From: Deltaproteobacteria bacterium
GTDB lineage: Bacteria > Desulfobacterota > Binatia > Binatales > Binataceae
Assembly: GCA_027317185.1 (NCBI GenBank)
Contig: DAHVFB010000048.1
Coordinates: 1 to 27,396 of the forward strand
DNA: 27,396 bases
Reading direction: 5' to 3'
Shown here: piece after piece, positions 16,748 to 26,210 of the stretch
Layout: each line of letters begins with the position of its first letter
Position numbering within the stretch: position 1 is the stretch's first letter
The notes under the pieces: model-generated
Databases searched by the model: none
What the model saw: the letters and a program-made list of their open reading frames with translations, nothing else
Told to the model about the DNA's origin: nothing
Translations under genes and position numbers: made by a program

Positions 16748-19075
16748 ATGCGTAATCGCGACCTGAGAGCGTTGGAATTCGACAAAGTGCTTGAAATCGC
16801 CGAGGGCTTCGCGGTCTCGGCACCGGGCCGCGATGCGGTCCGCGATCTCGCGCCATCGCGCGACCGCGATCAGGTGCGCGAACGGCTGCGCACCGCGGCC
16901 GAGTTGGCCGAATTGCGATTGCATTCTGGATCCCTTCCGGTCGGCGAGTTCACCGACCAGCGCGGCTTGATTCTGGCGGCCGCGCGCGAGGGCGCCGTAC
17001 TCGATGGAGCCTCGCTGGTCCGCATCCGCGATTTCGTGCTCGCCGCGCGGCATCTGTCGGCCTTCATGCGATCGCGGGTCGAACCATATCCCCATCTCAG
17101 CACAATCGCTGCGATGCTGGTGGCGCCGAAGGAGCTCGCCGATGCGATGCTGTCGGCGCTGGCCGACGACGGCGGTCTGCTCGACGATGCCAGCCCTGAA
17201 CTGCACCGGCTGCGAAAGCGCCTGCGCGAGGGCCGCCTCGACCTCGAGACCCGGCTTTTCCGGGCGCTGAACGCGCCGGGAATGGAGCCGTTCATCTCCG
17301 ATTCCGTCGTCACTTTGCGCAATCGCCGCTTCGTCGTCCCGCTCAAGCTCAATTATGCCGACAAGCTGGAGGGCATCGTTCAGGATCGATCGGTCTCGGG
17401 CGAAACCCTGTTCGTGGAGCCGCTGTGGGCGATCGAACTTAACAACCGGCTGATGATGTTCGAGCGCGAGGCCGAGGCCGAGGAACGGCGCATCCTGATG
17501 GCGCTGAGCGCGATGGTGCGCGGTTATGCGCGCGAGTTGCGGATGACCTTCGATGCGATGGTGCGCCTGGACATGCTCAATGCCTGCGCAGTTTTCGCCG
17601 AGCGTTTCGGCGGTATCGAGCCCGAGCTTACCGAATGGGGCCTGGAGCTGACGGCGGCGCGCCATCCGATGCTGGTGGCGAGCGGGCGTGAAGTGGTGCC
17701 GATCGACATCGCGATCGGCGCTGATCAGCACGGCATCGTCATTTCCGGTCCCAACACCGGCGGTAAAACGGTGGCGCTCAAGACCGTCGGACTGCTCTCG
17801 ATGATGGCGCAGGCGGGGCTACTGATACCCGCGCAACGCGCGCGGCTGCCGGTCTTCAGCTCGTGTTTTGTCGATATCGGCGACGAGCAATCGATCGAAC
17901 GGAACCTTTCGAGCTTCGCCGCCCATATCATGAACCTGCGCGAAATTGTCGATTCTTTCGCCGAACCGGCGCTCGTGATCCTCGATGAACCGGGTGCCGG
18001 CACCGACCCCACCGAAGGGGCCGCGCTCGCGATCGGGATGATGAACTATTTCAAGGCCCGCAAGTGCCTGCTCGGGATCGCGACGCATTCAAACGCGGTC
18101 AAGCTGCACGCTTATTCGAGCGGCGGTTTCGAGGCGGCGGCGGTCGATTTCGATCCCGAACGGCTGCTGCCGCGGTATCGGTTGAAACCGCATACCATTG
18201 GCGAGAGCTACGGCCTGGCGGTGGCGCGCCGGCTGGGCTTGCCCGACGAGATCGTCAGTGCCGCCGAAGCTGCCCGTGGCGAGGCGAATATCCAGCTCGA
18301 TCGCGTTCTTCGTCAGCTCGAACAGGAACGCGACGCACTGCACGCCGCGCGGGAGCGGCTGACAGAACGCGCGCGCGAACTCGATATGCAGCAGCAGCGC
18401 AATCTCGAACAAGCCGCGCACGAACGCCGTAAGTACACGGCCGAGACAGAACGATTGCGCGCCGAAGCGCAGAATTTAATCGCGGAGCTGCGCCGTCAAA
18501 GCGCCGATCTGGCAAAAGAAATCCGCGCGGGAACAAAGCCGCGATCGAGCATGACCGCGATGCTCAACCAGGCCGTGGAACGGATGGCCGGTCTGACGCC
18601 GGAGGGCGCGGAAGCTGACCCCGGATCGCAGACGCCGTTTAAGGTCGGCGACCAGGTCGAGGTCGGCGATCTGCGGGGCGAACTGCTGCAACTGGATCAG
18701 AATCGCGCGGTGATCGGACGCGGCGGCCTGCGCATCGAAGTCGCCCTCGACCGGCTGCGGCATGCGCGCACGCCACAACCCTCAAGATCTTCCCGGCGGC
18801 CGCAGGTCAGTGTCGCGGCTGCCGCCAGCGGCGACGCCGAGATCAATTTGATTGGAATGCGAACCGCCGAGGCGCTCCACAGGCTCGAAGAGTTCCTCGA
18901 TCAGGCCTACCTGACCAACCGCGCCGAAGTGCGTATCGTACATGGAATCGGTTCGGGCGCGCTGCGCAAAGCGATCCACGAATACCTGGGCAACTCGGCG
19001 TACTCAGCTTCGTTCCGCGAAGCCGAGCCGCATCAGGGAGGCGCCGGCGCGACGGTCGTGACACTCAGCCTGTGA
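16748..19075 (+). CDS. mutS2: Endonuclease MutS2 (MutS domain III/ATPase + C-terminal Smr)
   Basis: 775 aa with Walker A GPNTGGKTVALKTVGL and Walker B ILDEPGAGTDPTEG. The C-terminal Smr domain is INLIGMRTAEALHRLEEFLDQA...VRIVHGIGSGALRKAIHEYL. Confidence 0.9.
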   Translation: MRNRDLRALEFDKVLEIAEGFAVSAPGRDAVRDLAPSRDRDQVRERLRTAAELAELRLHSGSLPVGEFTDQRGLILAAAREGAVLDGASLVRIRDFVLAARHLSAFMRSRVEPYPHLSTIAAMLVAPKELADAMLSALADDGGLLDDASPELHRLRKRLREGRLDLETRLFRALNAPGMEPFISDSVVTLRNRRFVVPLKLNYADKLEGIVQDRSVSGETLFVEPLWAIELNNRLMMFEREAEAEERRILMALSAMVRGYARELRMTFDAMVRLDMLNACAVFAERFGGIEPELTEWGLELTAARHPMLVASGREVVPIDIAIGADQHGIVISGPNTGGKTVALKTVGLLSMMAQAGLLIPAQRARLPVFSSCFVDIGDEQSIERNLSSFAAHIMNLREIVDSFAEPALVILDEPGAGTDPTEGAALAIGMMNYFKARKCLLGIATHSNAVKLHAYSSGGFEAAAVDFDPERLLPRYRLKPHTIGESYGLAVARRLGLPDEIVSAAEAARGEANIQLDRVLRQLEQERDALHAARERLTERARELDMQQQRNLEQAAHERRKYTAETERLRAEAQNLIAELRRQSADLAKEIRAGTKPRSSMTAMLNQAVERMAGLTPEGAEADPGSQTPFKVGDQVEVGDLRGELLQLDQNRAVIGRGGLRIEVALDRLRHARTPQPSRSSRRPQVSVAAAASGDAEINLIGMRTAEALHRLEEFLDQAYLTNRAEVRIVHGIGSGALRKAIHEYLGNSAYSASFREAEPHQGGAGATVVTLSL

Positions 19076-22320: not shown

Positions 22321-23085
22321 ATGGCGCGCAAAGGAAAATCCCGGAGCCAGCCCCCCAAGCCGGAATCCTCCAAGCCGGTGTTTCCTTCGCCGTTCAAGGA
22401 TCTCCGTAAAATGATCGGCGACGGGCGCCCAAACCCCGCACCGGCCACGACAGCGATCAAACTACCCGCCGCGCCATCCCAAGCAGTTTCACCTGCTCCG
22501 CAAATCAACGACGAGGCTCTGTTTCGCGAGGCGATGGACGGCGCGCGGCCGTTGTCCGGTCCGCGCAAGGCCCGCGTGGCGATTGAGCCGCGCGTAGCGG
22601 TCAACATCGTGAGCGAAGAATCGGAGGTGCTGGCGGAGCTTTATGACCTGGTATCCGGCCAGGGGCCGTTCGAACTTACCGAAACCGAGGAATACGTCGA
22701 GGGCGCGCGGAACGGAATCGATCCGCGGGTGGTGAGCCGCCTGCGGCGCGGCGAGTTCGCGCTGCAAGGGCATATCGATCTGCACGGGATGGTACGCGAA
22801 GAAGCCAAGCGCGCGCTGACGGATTTCATCATCGATTCGCTGCACAAGGGCCGCCGCGCAATCCTGGTGGTGCATGGTCGCGGCCACGGATCGCCGGGCG
22901 GGCGTCCGATCCTGAAACATCTTACCGCACGTTGGCTCTCGCACGGGGTGATCGGCGGCTACGTGCTGGCGTTTACCTCGGCGCGGCCCAACGACGGCGG
23001 CGCGGGCGCGATGTACGTGCTGCTGCGGCGCGAGCGCCGCCGCGGCCAGTTCGAGGTGCTCAACGGCACCCACGGGCGCGACTGA
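22321..23085 (+). CDS. Smr-domain protein (SmrB/YfcN-like) with a disordered Pro/Ala-rich N-terminal region
   Basis: The C-terminal Smr domain is HIDLHGMVREEAKRALTDFIIDSLHKGRRAILVVHGRGHGS...GRPILKHLTARWL. Confidence 0.75.
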   Translation: MARKGKSRSQPPKPESSKPVFPSPFKDLRKMIGDGRPNPAPATTAIKLPAAPSQAVSPAPQINDEALFREAMDGARPLSGPRKARVAIEPRVAVNIVSEESEVLAELYDLVSGQGPFELTETEEYVEGARNGIDPRVVSRLRRGEFALQGHIDLHGMVREEAKRALTDFIIDSLHKGRRAILVVHGRGHGSPGGRPILKHLTARWLSHGVIGGYVLAFTSARPNDGGAGAMYVLLRRERRRGQFEVLNGTHGRD

Positions 23086-23170: not shown

Positions 23171-24349
23171 ATGGCGTCGATTAAACGACTGGTCAAATTA
23201 AACGGCGGTTCGGGAACACGGGATGCAGATCCAGCAAAGATCAAGCTTTTTGGCGCCCTGAAATTAGTCGTAATCCTCGGCATCGGCATAATGCTGATGA
23301 TGATCCTGACCACCCGGGCGTGCGACCTGATCGATTCGCAGAGCCGTTTCGGCATCGCCTCGGGCGTGGTGCTGTTGTCGCTCGCCTTCGGCATACTGGC
23401 CGCGCTGGTGCTCAAAGGCATCCAGTTATCGATCAAAACCATGAAGCGGCTCGGGATGATGGCGATCGCGGTCGTGATCCTGGCTGCCGTCAACGGCTGT
23501 AAATATGTCCCGCCCGGCTATGTCGGAATCAAAGTCGATTTGTATGGACCGCAACGCGGCGTACAGGATCTGCCGATCGTGACCGGACGGATTCTCTATA
23601 ATCCCTGGACCGAGCAGATTTATGAGTTTCCCACCTTCATGCAGTACAACATCTGGACGGTAAGCCCGAACGAGGGCCGCGGATTGGATGAAAGCCTCAC
23701 CTTCGTCACCAAGGATCGAATCCAGGTTAACGTCGATGTCAGCGTCGCGTATCAATTCATGCCCGATAAGGTGGCTCAGCTTTTCATCATCTTCCGCCAG
23801 CCACCCGAAGTGATCGCGGACACCTATATTCGATCCCGGGTGCGCGATGCGTTTACCCGCGATGGGGCTACGCTCAATGCGATGGACGTGCTGGGGGCCG
23901 GGATTTCGCAGCTCGACGCCGACGTGAAGAAAACGGTGGACGCCGAGATGGCGCCGCTTGGAATCCGTTTCGATTACATTTCAATCATCAACAAGCCCCG
24001 CATTCCCCCGCAAATTCAGGAGGCGATCGAGCAGGCGCTGGAGGCTACGCAGCGCGCTCAGACCGCACAAAATCAAGTGGCCGTAGCCGAGGCCGAGGCC
24101 CGTCAGAAGGTCGCTGTAGCGCAGGGAAACGCCAACGCGTTACGGACCGAGGCGCAGGGCCGCGCCGACGCGCTGCTGATGGAGAAAGAGGCTGAGGCCA
24201 AAGCCAACCAGCTAATCGCAGCCAGCATGACGCCACAGCTCATCCAGTACATGGCGATTCAGCGCTGGAAAGGCGAGGTTCCGACGTGGCAGACCGCTGG
24301 CGGCCAGGCCTCGATTCCGTTCGTCTCGATGCAGCCCCCGACGCGCTGA
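23171..24349 (+). CDS. SPFH/band-7 (stomatin/prohibitin/HflKC-like) membrane protein (start uncertain; possible alternative start at MKRLGMMAIAVVILAAVNGC ~23441)
   Basis: The SPFH core is ...GIKVDLYGPQRGVQDLPIVTGRILYNPWTEQIYEF...VNVDVSVAYQ... A coiled-coil Ala/Gln/Glu-rich C-terminus follows (QAIEQALEATQRAQTAQNQVAVAEAEARQKVAVAQGNANALRTEAQ). 2-3 N-terminal hydrophobic segments are present. Confidence 0.8.
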   Translation: MASIKRLVKLNGGSGTRDADPAKIKLFGALKLVVILGIGIMLMMILTTRACDLIDSQSRFGIASGVVLLSLAFGILAALVLKGIQLSIKTMKRLGMMAIAVVILAAVNGCKYVPPGYVGIKVDLYGPQRGVQDLPIVTGRILYNPWTEQIYEFPTFMQYNIWTVSPNEGRGLDESLTFVTKDRIQVNVDVSVAYQFMPDKVAQLFIIFRQPPEVIADTYIRSRVRDAFTRDGATLNAMDVLGAGISQLDADVKKTVDAEMAPLGIRFDYISIINKPRIPPQIQEAIEQALEATQRAQTAQNQVAVAEAEARQKVAVAQGNANALRTEAQGRADALLMEKEAEAKANQLIAASMTPQLIQYMAIQRWKGEVPTWQTAGGQASIPFVSMQPPTR

Positions 24350-24379
24350 TTGGCGGTAAAAAAACGGGGGCGGGCATCA
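24283..24379 (+). repeat. Left copy of a 97-bp imperfect direct repeat (94/97 identical to 25740..25836). It covers the SPFH 3' end and stop plus an A7 run and half of a hairpin
   Basis: Direct alignment gives GACGTGGCAGACCGCTGGCGG...GATTCCGTTCGTCTCGATGCAGCCCCCGACGCGCTGATTGGCGGTAAAAAAACGGGGGCGGGCATCA, with three mismatches clustered at repeat positions 23-29. Confidence 0.9.
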
Positions 24380-25739
24380 GACAAGCTGCGGCGGCGCGAG
24401 CGCCGCGGCAACGCCACCACCGACGCGACTGAAACGTTACAGGACATGCCGATGCTCCTGCCTCTTTACTGCGTCCGACCTCGACCCCCCGGTGTGAGAC
24501 AATGGGTGGACAATACATCGACTTCGGTGCAACAATAGGCACATGAAGTCGCGTCAATTTGGCCCTATTGACCTGCGTAAGTGGATTATCCAATCTATAC
24601 GAGCTGGTCAACTTAGAATAGTTTCAAGCGCCGCAGCTCAGTTTGGAATTTCCCGTCAAACCGTCCACCGTGAAATTCAGGAGATGATTCGGCAAGGTTT
24701 GCTGACGTCTGCCGGAAATACTCGCGCGCGGCAATATCAGTTGCCAATTATCAACCAATTTGCTGTCGACATGGCGGTCACACCGAATTTGGAAGAAGAC
24801 CTGATCTGGCGAAAACATATTGAACCAATATTTGCTGATTTGCCGCCCAACGTGCAGTTAATCGGCCAACATGGATTTACCGAAATGCTAAACAATGTGA
24901 TCGATCATTCGGGGTCCGTGATAGTTCATCTTTTGGCGCTACGCACTGCCGCGAACGTTTCGATGATGGTATCCGACGAGGGGATCGGCATTTTCAAGAA
25001 AATTTATATGGAGCGGTCGCTCGAGGATCCGCGTCACGCGATTCTGGAGCTTTCCAAAGGCCGGTTAACCACTGATCCGGACAGGCACACGGGAGAGGGA
25101 ATATTCTTCACGTCCCGTATATTCGATCGATTCGCAATTTTGTCCGGGAACCTATCGTTAACGTGCACGCCCGAACAGGGAGATTGGCTGTTTGATTTGG
25201 CCGACTGGGGAGTCAAGGTTGACGAACTGCCGTCCGGTATGCCCGGAACGCAAGTGCTAATGGAGATTAGTGCTTTCAGTGAACGTTCGCTTAAACAAGT
25301 GACGGATGAATTTGCGGGCGAAGATCAAGATTATTCGTTTTCAAAAACTCAGGTGCCGGTGCGGCTCGCTCGATATGGAGCAGAACAACTCGTTTCGAGA
25401 TCGCAAGCCAAAAGATTGCTAACGCGCGTAACCATCTTTAAAGAGGTAATTTTGGATTTTGAAGGGGTCGAAACGATCGGGCAGGCCTTTGCTGATGAGA
25501 TTTTCAGGGTCTTTAAAAAGGACCATCCAGGTACCCATCTGACCGTCTCAAGAGCGAACTCTCAGGTCGCGGCCATGATTAAACATGTTCAGCACAGTTC
25601 CGAATCCCACTTCCCCGCCGTTTAGCCTCTCGGAGAATCTTCAATTCGCGCTAACGAAGGGCGACCGCCGGGGATGTGAATGATGAACCCGTGCCGACGT
25701 ATATCGTATAGCCAAAGCGGAACAGTGGAGGGCGGTTAC
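24380..25739 (+). mobile_element. Candidate ~1.36-kb low-GC insertion/islet bounded by the 97-bp direct repeats, carrying one gene and no recognisable recombinase
   Basis: GC drops visibly (to roughly 48-52%) relative to flanks of ~62-65%. The repeat structure duplicates the target sequence. The element interrupts the SPFH-stop/atpE-terminator junction. Confidence 0.45.
24543..25625 (+). CDS. Three-domain protein: N-terminal winged-HTH, central GHKL (HATPase_c; RsbW/SpoIIAB-like Ser-kinase/ATPase) domain, C-terminal DUF4325 (STAS-like) domain
   Basis: The HTH is WIIQSIRAGQLRIVSSAAAQFGISRQTVHREIQEMIRQGLL. The GHKL N-box is TEMLNNVIDHS, the G1 box SDEGIGIF and the G2-like box TGEGIFFTS. The C-terminal ~90 aa (…AKRLLTRVTIFKEVILDFEGVETIGQAFADEIFRVF…) matches the DUF4325/STAS-like family as remembered. 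The ORF is AT-rich relative to the genome. Confidence 0.65.
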   Translation: MKSRQFGPIDLRKWIIQSIRAGQLRIVSSAAAQFGISRQTVHREIQEMIRQGLLTSAGNTRARQYQLPIINQFAVDMAVTPNLEEDLIWRKHIEPIFADLPPNVQLIGQHGFTEMLNNVIDHSGSVIVHLLALRTAANVSMMVSDEGIGIFKKIYMERSLEDPRHAILELSKGRLTTDPDRHTGEGIFFTSRIFDRFAILSGNLSLTCTPEQGDWLFDLADWGVKVDELPSGMPGTQVLMEISAFSERSLKQVTDEFAGEDQDYSFSKTQVPVRLARYGAEQLVSRSQAKRLLTRVTIFKEVILDFEGVETIGQAFADEIFRVFKKDHPGTHLTVSRANSQVAAMIKHVQHSSESHFPAV

Positions 25740-25836
25740 GACGTGGCAGACCGCTGGCGGCTAGGGCCCGATTCCGTTCGTCTCGATGCAGCCCCCGACG
25801 CGCTGATTGGCGGTAAAAAAACGGGGGCGGGCATCA
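25740..25836 (+). repeat. Right copy of the 97-bp direct repeat. Here the sequence continues into the complete terminator hairpin, and an in-frame TAG disrupts the duplicated SPFH C-terminal coding segment
   Basis: See the left copy. In this copy the SPFH-frame has acquired a TAG (GGCGGCTAGGGCCC). Confidence 0.9.
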
Positions 25837-25848
25837 AGCCCACCCCCG
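25814..25848 (-). terminator. Rho-independent terminator of atpE (minus strand): stem CGGGGGCGGGC / GCCCACCCCCG, loop ATCAA, followed on the minus strand by U7
   Basis: An 11-bp stem (one G-U/T mismatch) lies 33 nt after the atpE stop. The A7 run on the plus strand (25814-25820) is the U-tract on the minus strand. Confidence 0.7.
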
Positions 25849-25880
25849 TGGTCGAACAATTCAGCTTTTCGTTGGATTTG

Positions 25881-26210
25881 TTAGATCTTGGCGTACAGGA
25901 AGAACGCGATCACGAAAGCATACAGGGTCAGCGACTCGACGAACGCCAGGCCGATGATCATCGGGACGAACAACTGGCTGGTGCTGTTAGGATTACGTCC
26001 GATCGACTCCATCGCCGAAGCGGCCAGCTTGCCCTGACCAAGACCGCAGCCGAGCGCCGCGATACCCAGGCCGAGGCCGGTACCAAGGCCGATCAGACCT
26101 CTGCTCATCCCGCCATCGGCAACCGCCGCCGTCTGCGCCATTGCGAATAACGGCGAGCCGAGCATCAGCGCCATCAGGGCGCCCAGGGTCAACCCAATTT
26201 TGCGAACCAT
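25881..26210 (-). CDS. atpE: F0F1 ATP synthase subunit c (AtpE) with a ~30-aa N-terminal signal-peptide-like extension
   Basis: The c-subunit hairpin is GLIGLGTGLGLGIAALGCGLGQGKLAASAMESIGRNPNSTSQLFVPMIIGLAFVESLTLYAFVIAFFLY, with the conserved carboxylate E in TM2. The start is assigned to ATG 26210 (MVRK...) because AAGGAG lies 9 nt upstream. The ORF-track extension to 26258 is rejected. Confidence 0.88.
   Translation of the reverse strand: MVRKIGLTLGALMALMLGSPLFAMAQTAAVADGGMSRGLIGLGTGLGLGIAALGCGLGQGKLAASAMESIGRNPNSTSQLFVPMIIGLAFVESLTLYAFVIAFFLYAKI

Follow-up and report, generated by a model that had tools for sequence, protein, structure and literature searches.

What does a gene do that joins a winged helix-turn-helix (wHTH) domain, a GHKL domain and a STAS-like domain in a single polypeptide and stands alone between direct repeats, and how did it come to be there? 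We addressed this question for one such locus in the window, i.e. the whole 27,396-nt stretch of Candidatus Binataceae DNA that was analysed. The features on which the argument draws are the following.

24277..24379, no strand assigned: left copy of a 103-nt direct repeat (repeat search; pairwise alignment)
24380..25733, plus strand: inserted cassette of 1354 nt, consisting of the probable promoter/operator array and the gene, and nothing else
24496..24536, plus strand: degenerate copy of the family array (promoter scan; family motif and PWM)
24543..25625, plus strand, stop codon counted: gene for the wHTH-GHKL-STAS-like protein, 360 aa, ATG start
24564..24743, plus strand: winged helix-turn-helix domain, residues 8-67
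24753..25316, plus strand: GHKL (Bergerat-fold) domain of the RsbW/SpoIIAB type, residues 71-258
25338..25598, plus strand: DUF4325 STAS-like domain, residues 266-352
25734..25836, no strand assigned: right copy of the 103-nt direct repeat (repeat search; pairwise alignment)
25821..25849, minus strand: intrinsic terminator of the host ATP-synthase operon, a 12-bp stem followed by T7 (terminator scan; alignment)

The islet between the repeats carries this one gene and is of low GC content and foreign codon usage, as the first-pass annotation had proposed: GC is 0.51 in the cassette and 0.49 in the gene compared to 0.60 in the host, and GC3 of the gene is 0.52 compared to 0.66-0.81 in nine neighbouring host genes. 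The two repeat copies are 96% identical (4 mismatches). In the left copy, the host SPFH gene contributes its final 73 nt (stop codon at 24347-24349), and 30 additional nt follow, extending to the loop of the terminator hairpin of the atp operon, of which atpE and atpB were identified in the window by Pfam. The functional 3' end of the SPFH gene lies in the left copy, and the right copy is a degenerate, non-functional duplicate of that end, with a CAG>TAG change, continuing into the other half of the terminator hairpin; the boundary between repeat and insertion is located within the terminator loop. Neither a transposase or integrase nor fragments thereof were found in the 1354-nt insert. Long target duplication is recognized by direct repeats longer than 30 bp around an insert shorter than 20 kb that lacks mobility genes (Furuta et al. 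2010); here, a 103-nt repeat encloses 1354 nt with a single, non-mobility gene. When the corresponding empty site was sought through exact records of the focal, SPFH and atpE proteins, none was on record; the nearest SPFH orthologues, which share 72-77% identity, lack synteny with the window, and a junction-spanning pattern scan of a metagenome collection gave 0 matches. Because the empty site was not found, the target-duplication reading of the window relies on the repeat content and on the analogy with other loci. The cassette would, in our best explanation, to which as a whole we give slightly better than even chances, have entered the chromosome at a point flanked by the SPFH gene and the terminator of the atp operon, via a long target duplication of 103 bp.

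Comparison of loci across the family reveals the same footprint elsewhere. Of 62 loci, 8 have direct repeats (39-513 nt) on both sides of the gene; among 317 shifted controls, the number is 4 (odds ratio 11.6, p = 1 × 10−4). No repeat sequence is shared between loci, and nine further loci contain equivalent inserts of 1.16-2.2 kb, with only the array and the gene between locus-specific direct repeats. An insertion sequence, transposon, integron cassette or integrase island was considered as the vehicle and rejected, given the lack of flanking inverted repeats in the 62 loci, the lack of a recombinase in the insert and the variable repeat length. Insertion with long target duplication is documented for restriction-modification genes (Nobusato/Furuta/Kobayashi; PMC2853133), and the similarity is extensive: a small low-GC insert without mobility genes, bounded by long, variable, locus-specific direct repeats that measure tens to hundreds of bp and may overlap the 3' ends of host genes. 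Unlike restriction-modification units, however, the present cargo belongs to another class and encodes no nuclease, and no empty site was recovered here.

The family is already in the databases and is not rare, its function being uncharacterised; a literature search found no characterisation of it. At least 7990 matches, all about 340-395 aa, were found, with 1261 clusters at 50% identity (E ≤ 1e-30); the members come from at least 598 species and more than 10 phyla, and the groups represented include Chloroflexota, Binatia, Planctomycetota, Acidobacteriota, Cyanobacteria, Proteobacteria, Spirochaetia and Nitrospirota. Proteobacterial members occur, for example, in Paraburkholderia tropica and Caballeronia. 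Thousands of members are labelled 'DUF4325/STAS-like domain-containing protein' or 'anti-sigma regulatory factor'. Sequence identity is about 45-50% and does not track taxonomy, other Binatia copies being no closer than Chloroflexi copies. Of 76 genome loci, 71 show a GC content of the gene below that of the flanking DNA, the median difference being −10 points; the same applies to 50 of 57 viral loci. Prophage carriage was observed in 58 IMG/VR loci, where the gene occupies moron positions and the neighbours match terminase, integrase, endolysin and tail PHROGs; there were no family matches among 50,697 reference phages and 72,556 plasmids.

Gene neighbourhoods show no conserved association. 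Among 80 loci, no neighbour gene is conserved (the commonest neighbour cluster occurs in 9), no Pfam family exceeds 4 occurrences among the 117 immediate neighbours, and the closest homologues (64% and 53% identity) reside in unrelated housekeeping contexts. In agreement with the initial description of a stand-alone unit without a sigma factor nearby, no linked sigma factor, PP2C phosphatase or other partner is conserved in the 80 loci (80 genomes). The adjacency of the SPFH and Smr genes, which had been considered meaningful, is incidental to the insertion site: neither family recurs beside the homologues among the 117 immediate neighbours, and both are therefore rejected as functional partners. 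The association of the family with defence genes is weak as well, with only a handful of PADLOC matches among the 117 neighbours; embedding in defence islands is restricted to a minority of loci. Taken together, as part of the same explanation, the family is probably, by a modest balance, a horizontally mobile one-gene cassette that moves between phyla and prophages.

The proposed combination of a wHTH, an RsbW/SpoIIAB-like GHKL domain and a STAS-like domain proved real, both in the folds and in the conserved motifs. The 360-aa start appears to be the correct one, supported by the conservation of residues 10-47 and by the position of the putative promoter; the database annotation of the window protein (P0001) begins at M48, comprises 313 aa and truncates the HTH. 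The N-terminal domain folds as a three-helix bundle with a beta-hairpin wing, and its recognition helix, ISRQTVHREI, is near-invariant family-wide in the alignment of 36 sequences. In the same alignment, the N, G1 and G2 motifs quoted in the first-pass annotation are all invariant or near-invariant: the N-box TEMLNNVIDHS (residues 113-123; key residues E114, N118 and H122), the G1 box SDEGIGIF (residues 144-151; D145-x-G-x-G149) and the lid/G2 region K172-G-x-L-T-T-D-P...H182-x-G-E-G186, with HTGEGIFF at residues 182-189. The middle domain thus combines the Mg-binding Asn of the N-box, DxGxG and a Gly-rich lid with an alpha/beta sandwich. Profile searches with the window protein bore out one of the three assignments: DUF4325 (PF14213) matched residues 288-342 with 55.9 bits, above the cut-off of 23 (E = 3.4e-15), the match spanning positions 1-63 of the 64 in the profile, whereas HATPase_c and HATPase_c_2 (18.8 bits, E about 2e-3; cut-offs 26.4 and 27.4) and the HTH families stayed below the Pfam gathering scores. 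Precomputed PF13581 or PF02518 matches are present in many homologues.

When GHKL domains were compared, the anti-sigma-type kinases gave the scores RsbW 14.7, SpoIIAB 14.6, Rv1364c 14.3, UsfX 13.6 and SiaB 11.4, and the other GHKL proteins DesK 9.9 and topoisomerase II 9.8. By these scores, the domain resembles anti-sigma Ser kinases more closely than it does histidine kinases or GHKL ATPases. A sequence search of the PDB with the whole window protein yielded nothing significant, only a search with the family profile led to the catalytic domains of DesK and VraS, and no full-length analogue was found in BFVD.

The C-terminal domain has the alpha/beta fold of STAS domains and contains invariant residues S285-R-S-Q-A289 and G313-Q314...D318. 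In the literature, DUF4325 has also been noted in linkage with PIN.4 (PMC5499597). The canonical STAS acceptor is a Ser or Thr at the N-terminus of the helix that follows beta3 (the Ser58 position of SpoIIAA). Judged by secondary-structure topology (strand 301-305, loop, helix 314-327), this position corresponds to the invariant G313-Q314; sequence and profile alignment of DUF4325 to SpoIIAA and classical STAS domains detected no sequence-level similarity. The canonical phospho-serine thus appears to be absent, and, with an invariant Gly-Gln at the acceptor position, RsbV-type phosphorylation at that site is unlikely, such that the earlier notion of a classical kinase substrate finds no support in its canonical form. 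Speculatively, phosphorylation could instead occur at a non-canonical acceptor, for which the invariant S285/S287 or the ATP-lid residues T176/T177 are candidates. Family proteins may be active kinases whose kinase and STAS-like domains would interact in cis or in trans.

Upstream of the gene, the family carries an array of same-orientation AAnGTTGACAAT repeats with a spacing of 21-22 nt (the unit is also written TTGACAAT and GTTGACAAT). TTGACAA was found in 75 of 127 upstream regions compared to at most 26 in shuffles, with 145 forward vs. 20 reverse occurrences; at least one PWM site was present in 105 of 127 loci compared to 54 of 416 controls, and among 132 adjacent site pairs, 110 were exactly 21-22 nt apart. 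The degenerate copy in the window comprises the units GAGACAAT (24496-24503), GTGGACAATA (24506-24515) and CAACAAT (24530-24536), with a single good PWM site (24503-24516, score 11.5). It can be read as a promoter with TGGACA as the −35 box (24507-24512), an 18-nt spacer and AACAAT as the −10 box (24531-24536) with a TG extension, 6 nt separating the end of the −10 box from the ATG. The geometry unit-11-unit-22-unit-ATG is common to the window and its closest homologues L145 and L147, and comparison of the non-coding spacers of the inserts across loci detected nothing conserved beyond the repeat motif. These patterns suggest that the array is probably a built-in promoter and operator, and the near-invariant recognition helix of the wHTH is consistent with a conserved DNA target; the array could also serve as a promoter only, without an operator role. 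Leaderless mRNA was rejected as a family-wide trait, an in-frame start 30-42 nt past the last strong site being present in only 26 of 104 loci. A leaderless-type geometry holds for the window, the closest homologues and some other loci.

The mobile-cassette explanation was weighed against two other histories of the locus. The gene might encode a host stress regulator, i.e. a fused anti-sigma factor and antagonist that controls a sigma factor encoded elsewhere, housekeeping and not mobile, as would fit the RsbW/SpoIIAB fold of the GHKL domain, the precedent of Rv1364c, a fused kinase-STAS protein that binds the sigma factor SigF, and the housekeeping nature of most neighbours. We regard this as improbable in view of the foreign GC content in 71 of the 76 genomes, the patchy distribution with an identity that does not follow taxonomy, the target-duplication footprints and prophage carriage, and the lack of a linked sigma factor or phosphatase gene; moreover, classical partner-switching modules contain nothing equivalent to the wHTH and the dedicated cis-array. 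The other history, decay of a larger integrative element (island or prophage) with the 103-nt repeats as old attL and attR, derives some appeal from the occurrence of family members in prophages and from direct repeats over a gene 3' end, which are typical of integrase-mediated insertion (PMC2853133). However, in ten independent loci of unrelated genomes the insert amounts to only 1.16-2.2 kb of array and gene, and repeats of 39-513 nt without a common sequence are unexpected from convergent decay or from a defined att core; the 1354-nt insert in the window also holds no integrase or transposase fragment. This history is therefore highly improbable, and the same ten minimal inserts contradict the suggestion of a regulator left behind by a larger element.

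A further alternative concerns the biochemistry of the protein. Instead of a phosphotransfer system, it may be an ATP-dependent DNA-binding switch, in which the GHKL domain would act as an ATPase, nucleotide-gated clamp or pure binding module, a role that anti-sigma factors also play, the STAS-like domain would be regulatory or ligand-binding and the output would be transcriptional only. Gly313-Gln314 at the phospho-serine position (by fold topology), the lack of sequence-level similarity between DUF4325 and classical STAS domains, the lack of a conserved PP2C phosphatase nearby for resetting, and a wHTH with a conserved operator-like array, which points to a DNA-level output, all speak for such a switch, and we consider it a real, if minor, possibility.

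We favour, with somewhat more confidence than doubt, an autoregulated, self-contained, partner-switch-like accessory gene that travels on a mobile cassette with its own array. In this model, adjacent array units would form a portable sigma-70-type promoter, with TTGACA as the −35 box, ACAAT of the next unit as the −10 box and a spacer of 17-18 nt. The same units would serve as the operator for the wHTH of the encoded protein, such that the gene would be autorepressed. The GHKL domain would bind ATP and engage the STAS-like domain, either in cis or between the chains of a dimer, in the way that RsbW engages RsbV, and this internal pair of kinase and antagonist would toggle the protein between states that differ in DNA binding and/or in the availability of the kinase for an external target. 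Given the accessory, selfish behaviour of the gene, a role in genetic conflict (phage defence, superinfection control or addiction) would be likely, rather than housekeeping stress signalling.

A more specific version of this role would be a novel class of one-gene conflict system, in which the wHTH would autorepress the gene on the iteron-like array, the STAS-like domain would restrain the kinase, and a phage or stress cue would free the kinase or DNA-binding activity, resulting in cell arrest or a block to the invader; the unit would spread as naked DNA via recombinase-independent long target duplication and would be expressed from a promoter portable across phyla. We consider this version doubtful. 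No model of PADLOC-DB v2.0.0 matched the window protein, which shows weak, wHTH-level similarity to the HTH part of CARF3 (E about 3e-3). HipA/HipB is a small mobile module in which a kinase toxin, fused to or partnered with an HTH, is autorepressed through that HTH; the kinase of HipA is PI3/4-kinase-like. The resemblance is at the level of the concept only, the GHKL fold of the present family being unrelated to HipA.

Compared to RsbW/RsbV and SpoIIAB/SpoIIAA, in which a GHKL Ser kinase/anti-sigma factor and a STAS antagonist are two proteins, the family unites both in one polypeptide with an N-terminal wHTH, lacks a linked sigma factor or PP2C phosphatase, has DUF4325 rather than PF01740 as the STAS-like domain, with the canonical phospho-serine apparently missing, and consists of mobile accessory genes, each accompanied by its own cis-array. 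Fusion of kinase and STAS in one polypeptide has a precedent in Rv1364c of M. tuberculosis, the STAS domain of which is autophosphorylated (PMC7693655). However, Rv1364c is a lineage-specific chromosomal protein with a sensor(PAS)-PP2C-GHKL kinase-STAS arrangement that acts on SigF and contains no DNA-binding domain, whereas proteins of the present family contain a wHTH and a divergent STAS domain but no phosphatase, and their genes move horizontally. The initial view of the architecture as undescribed is thus tenable insofar as no PADLOC model and no literature characterisation cover it, but not with regard to the kinase-STAS fusion of Rv1364c and the thousands of annotated members.

If the model holds, the family would represent an autonomous single-polypeptide partner switch with a direct DNA-binding output, in contrast to the usual multi-gene modules tied to sigma factors, and such a compact switch would be relevant to signalling and to synthetic biology. 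The promoter/operator array, which seemingly works from Chloroflexota to Proteobacteria, would be a natural broad-host-range expression unit, and gene mobility by long target duplication would reach beyond restriction-modification, and about ten independent natural examples of it would be available. Given the size of this uncharacterised family, assignment of its function would cover well over a thousand protein clusters.

The ORF at 24543–25625 (+) encodes a protein of 360 aa, with a solid Pfam match to DUF4325 (PF14213; residues 288–342, E = 3.4 × 10−15) and sub-threshold matches to HATPase_c_2/HATPase_c (residues 110–213) and to many HTH families (residues 11–67); NCBIfam and PADLOC scans of the protein gave no specific match. 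The family profile matched the catalytic domains of DesK and VraS in sequence (E ~ 1 × 10−4), with the N-box and G1 box aligned, and the motifs of the GHKL and C-terminal domains are invariant in a 36-sequence alignment. Thus, the first-pass annotation read the three domains (winged HTH, GHKL and STAS-like) correctly.

Motifs invariant in the 36-sequence alignment of the family
N-box: GFTEMLNNVIDHS, with E114, N118 and H122
G1 box: D145-x-G-x-G149
Lid/G2 segment: K172-G-x-L-T-T-D-P-x2-H-x-G-E-G186
C-terminal domain: S285-R-S-Q-A289 and G313-Q314-x-F-x-D318

The database record of this protein (P0001) is 100% identical, comprises 313 aa and begins at M48, so that most of the HTH is missing from it; in favour of a 360-aa start (24543–24686, residues 1–47) are the conservation of residues 10–47 family-wide and a promoter array just upstream of 24543. 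The DUF4325 consensus 'vSRSQAkRLL...f..v.ldF.gVe.IGqaFadEifRvf' (residues 284–327; 25392–25523) showed a weak, non-significant resemblance to the Hef (HhH)2 domain (1x2i, E = 0.28), probably a coincidental pattern, the predicted fold being STAS.

The family forms one length class with at least 7,990 significant matches in the protein search, annotated as 'DUF4325/STAS-like domain-containing protein' or 'anti-sigma regulatory factor', and 1,261 clusters at 50% identity in an exhaustive HMM search (E ≤ 1 × 10−30). It is encoded in at least 598 species genomes from more than 10 phyla at rather uniform identity (43–51%); copies from other Binatia (46–47%) are no closer than those from Chloroflexi (49%). 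When all ORFs within 6 kb were clustered, no conserved neighbour emerged (top cluster, 9 of 80 loci). The 117 immediate neighbours are functionally mixed, each Pfam family occurring 4 times at most. The two homologues nearest to the focal protein (64% and 53% identity) stand alone amid unrelated housekeeping genes. Because homologue loci share no conserved neighbour, the gene is a stand-alone unit, and its adjacency to SPFH and Smr genes, to which significance had been attached, is incidental: neither family, nor PP2C, is among the top-listed Pfam families of these neighbours. The same list contains no sigma factor. The association with defence islands is weak, with few of the 117 neighbours matching defence models (one JetC/JetD pair, SoFic, RT/DRT, Cas1, PDC-S09 and PDC-S17).

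The window derives from a Candidatus Binataceae MAG, and the gene order at the insert is AsmA, UDG, Smr, SPFH, insert, atpE, atpB. The GC content of the focal gene is 0.49 and its GC3 0.52, compared to a GC3 of 0.66–0.81 in the nine surrounding host genes. A direct repeat of 103 nt (4 mismatches) encloses 1354 nt that hold the gene, its upstream region and nothing else, which bears out the earlier description of a low-GC, repeat-flanked islet with a single cargo gene.

Features of the insertion site
24277–24379: left repeat copy, 3′ end of the host SPFH gene (in frame) and a further 30 nt
24380–25733: insert
25734–25836: right repeat copy, a degenerate duplicate with a CAG>TAG change
25849..25821 (−): intrinsic terminator of the convergent ATP-synthase operon, with the repeat end in its loop

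The initial ~100 nt of the insert (24380–24480) are GC-rich (about 0.65), unlike the focal gene, and begin with a GC-rich palindrome, GCTGCGGCGGCGCGAGCGCCGCGGC (24385–24409), which has a 92%-identical copy at the end of the Smr gene (23019–23046) and is possibly a REP-like element or terminator hairpin. A 156-aa ORF at 25680–26150 (+), with no Pfam match, is almost certainly spurious, given its overlap with the right repeat copy and its antisense position relative to atpE. The SPFH/Band-7 ORF (23171–24349) comprises 392 aa and its orthologues (L139–L144; 72–77% identity) 322–327 aa; an overlapping ORF of 89–91 aa precedes the orthologues, in contexts non-syntenic with the window, and the ORF in the window may result from a fusion, or its start may be called too far upstream. 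MutS2 (MutS_V + Smr; 16748–19075) and a separate stand-alone Smr-domain protein (22321–23085) are encoded at most 4 kb apart, both with host-like composition.

Low GC is typical of the family: in 71 of 76 genome loci (median −10 points) and 50 of 57 viral loci, the GC content of the gene falls short of that of its flanks by more than 3 points. Direct repeats of 39–513 nt flank it in 8 of 62 testable loci, compared to 4 of 317 shifted control positions at the same loci (odds ratio 11.6, p = 1 × 10−4); no comparable inverted repeats were found around it in the 62 loci. These repeats have no sequence in common between loci and are therefore host-derived; several overlap host gene ends, and the inserts (1.16–2.2 kb) consist of only the family gene and its upstream array. 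Restriction-modification units inserted with long target duplication have repeats of 46–423 bp, are often low-GC and sometimes have repeats overlapping gene 3′ ends (PMC2853133). Because searches found no empty site for the window insertion, we only infer that it occurred by this route. Two other loci, L052 (4081–7486; 253-nt and 513-nt repeats contiguous on one side and separated on the other) and L008 (2969–5778; several repeat pairs around the family gene), suggest repeated rearrangement or amplification at the repeats. No family member was found in 50,697 reference phages and 72,556 plasmids; 58 IMG/VR contigs carry members, in typical moron positions next to genes matching PHROGs for terminase small and large subunits, integrase, endolysin, tail, HNH and regulator.

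Upstream of the family gene, TTGACAA occurs in 75 of 127 loci (at most 26 in shuffles) and GTTGACAATA in 36 (at most 6), mostly in the orientation of the gene (145 vs. 20 opposite), ~20–110 nt before the start and with a 22-nt period. At least one PWM site was detected in 105 of 127 loci compared to 54 of 416 control pieces, and 110 of 132 adjacent site pairs are exactly 21 or 22 nt apart, a pattern absent from the controls. Every unit holds a −35-like TTGACA and a −10-like ACAAT, so that units 21–22 nt apart make a sigma-70 promoter with a 17–18 nt spacer. The array in the window is degenerate (GAGACAAT, 11 nt, GTGGACAATA, 22 nt, CAACAAT), with the same geometry in the two closest homologues (L145 and L147); a promoter scan yielded TGGACA-18-AACAAT (−10 within 24531–24545), with 6 nt between the −10 end and the ATG, and no clear Shine-Dalgarno was seen upstream. 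This −10-to-ATG geometry recurs non-uniformly (26 of 104 loci; the distance varies family-wide) and hints at leaderless or very short-leader mRNA in the focal subfamily. The wHTH recognition helix is near-invariant in the 36-sequence alignment, which fits a conserved DNA target, and the array is probably both the portable promoter and the operator for autorepression. Motif-like sites within the coding region, namely an overlapping inverted pair at 24737–24758 (TCAGTTGCCAATTA (+)/TTGGTTGATAATTG (−)) and AAGGTTGACGAACT (25215–25228), could be chance occurrences or internal operator sites.

Most likely, we infer, the protein is an autoregulated, self-contained partner-switch-like module, in which the GHKL domain, whose ATP-binding residues are intact, would engage the fused STAS-like domain in the manner of RsbW on RsbV, and this engagement would control DNA binding and/or whether the kinase is free to act on an external target. 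By topology, the place of the canonical phospho-serine of STAS domains (N-terminal end of the helix that follows β3) is taken by the invariant G313-Q314, so that any phosphorylation would be non-canonical, with candidate acceptors in the invariant S285/S287 (same face, where the neighbouring helix begins) or in T176/T177 (ATP lid). No linked phosphatase gene was found at family loci. The leading alternative is a switch that works purely by ATP gating or by binding, without phosphotransfer.

The closest families are RsbW/RsbV and SpoIIAB/SpoIIAA, and the fusion itself has its nearest precedent in Rv1364c (PAS-PP2C-GHKL-STAS). Because Rv1364c autophosphorylates its own STAS domain (PMC7693655), the fused kinase-antagonist pair is not a new idea; what is new is the output through a wHTH, the divergence of the STAS domain (DUF4325), the lack of a partner sigma factor or phosphatase, the conserved iteron-like array as predicted promoter/operator and the gene's behaviour as a mobile, naked cassette of one gene. 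The literature searched contained no characterisation of a DUF4325 protein. We rate the gene as a partner-switching-type kinase/STAS pair in a widespread, uncharacterised family: the initial observation stands, the interpretation is supported in part, and the features at the level of the cassette, namely a portable promoter made of a repeat array and mobility by long target duplication, had not been foreseen. For small DUF4325 proteins that stand alone, the literature reports transcriptional coupling to a VapC-like PIN.4 group and, for one of them, a location in a Francisella prophage close to the repressor/integrase region (PMC5499597, PMC7924643), which suggests that DUF4325 serves more generally as a module of mobile or conflict loci. 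For the focal family, the foreign GC content, patchy distribution, restriction-modification-like insertion footprint and prophage moron positions are the behaviour of an accessory, selfish gene and point to a role in genetic conflict rather than in housekeeping stress signalling.
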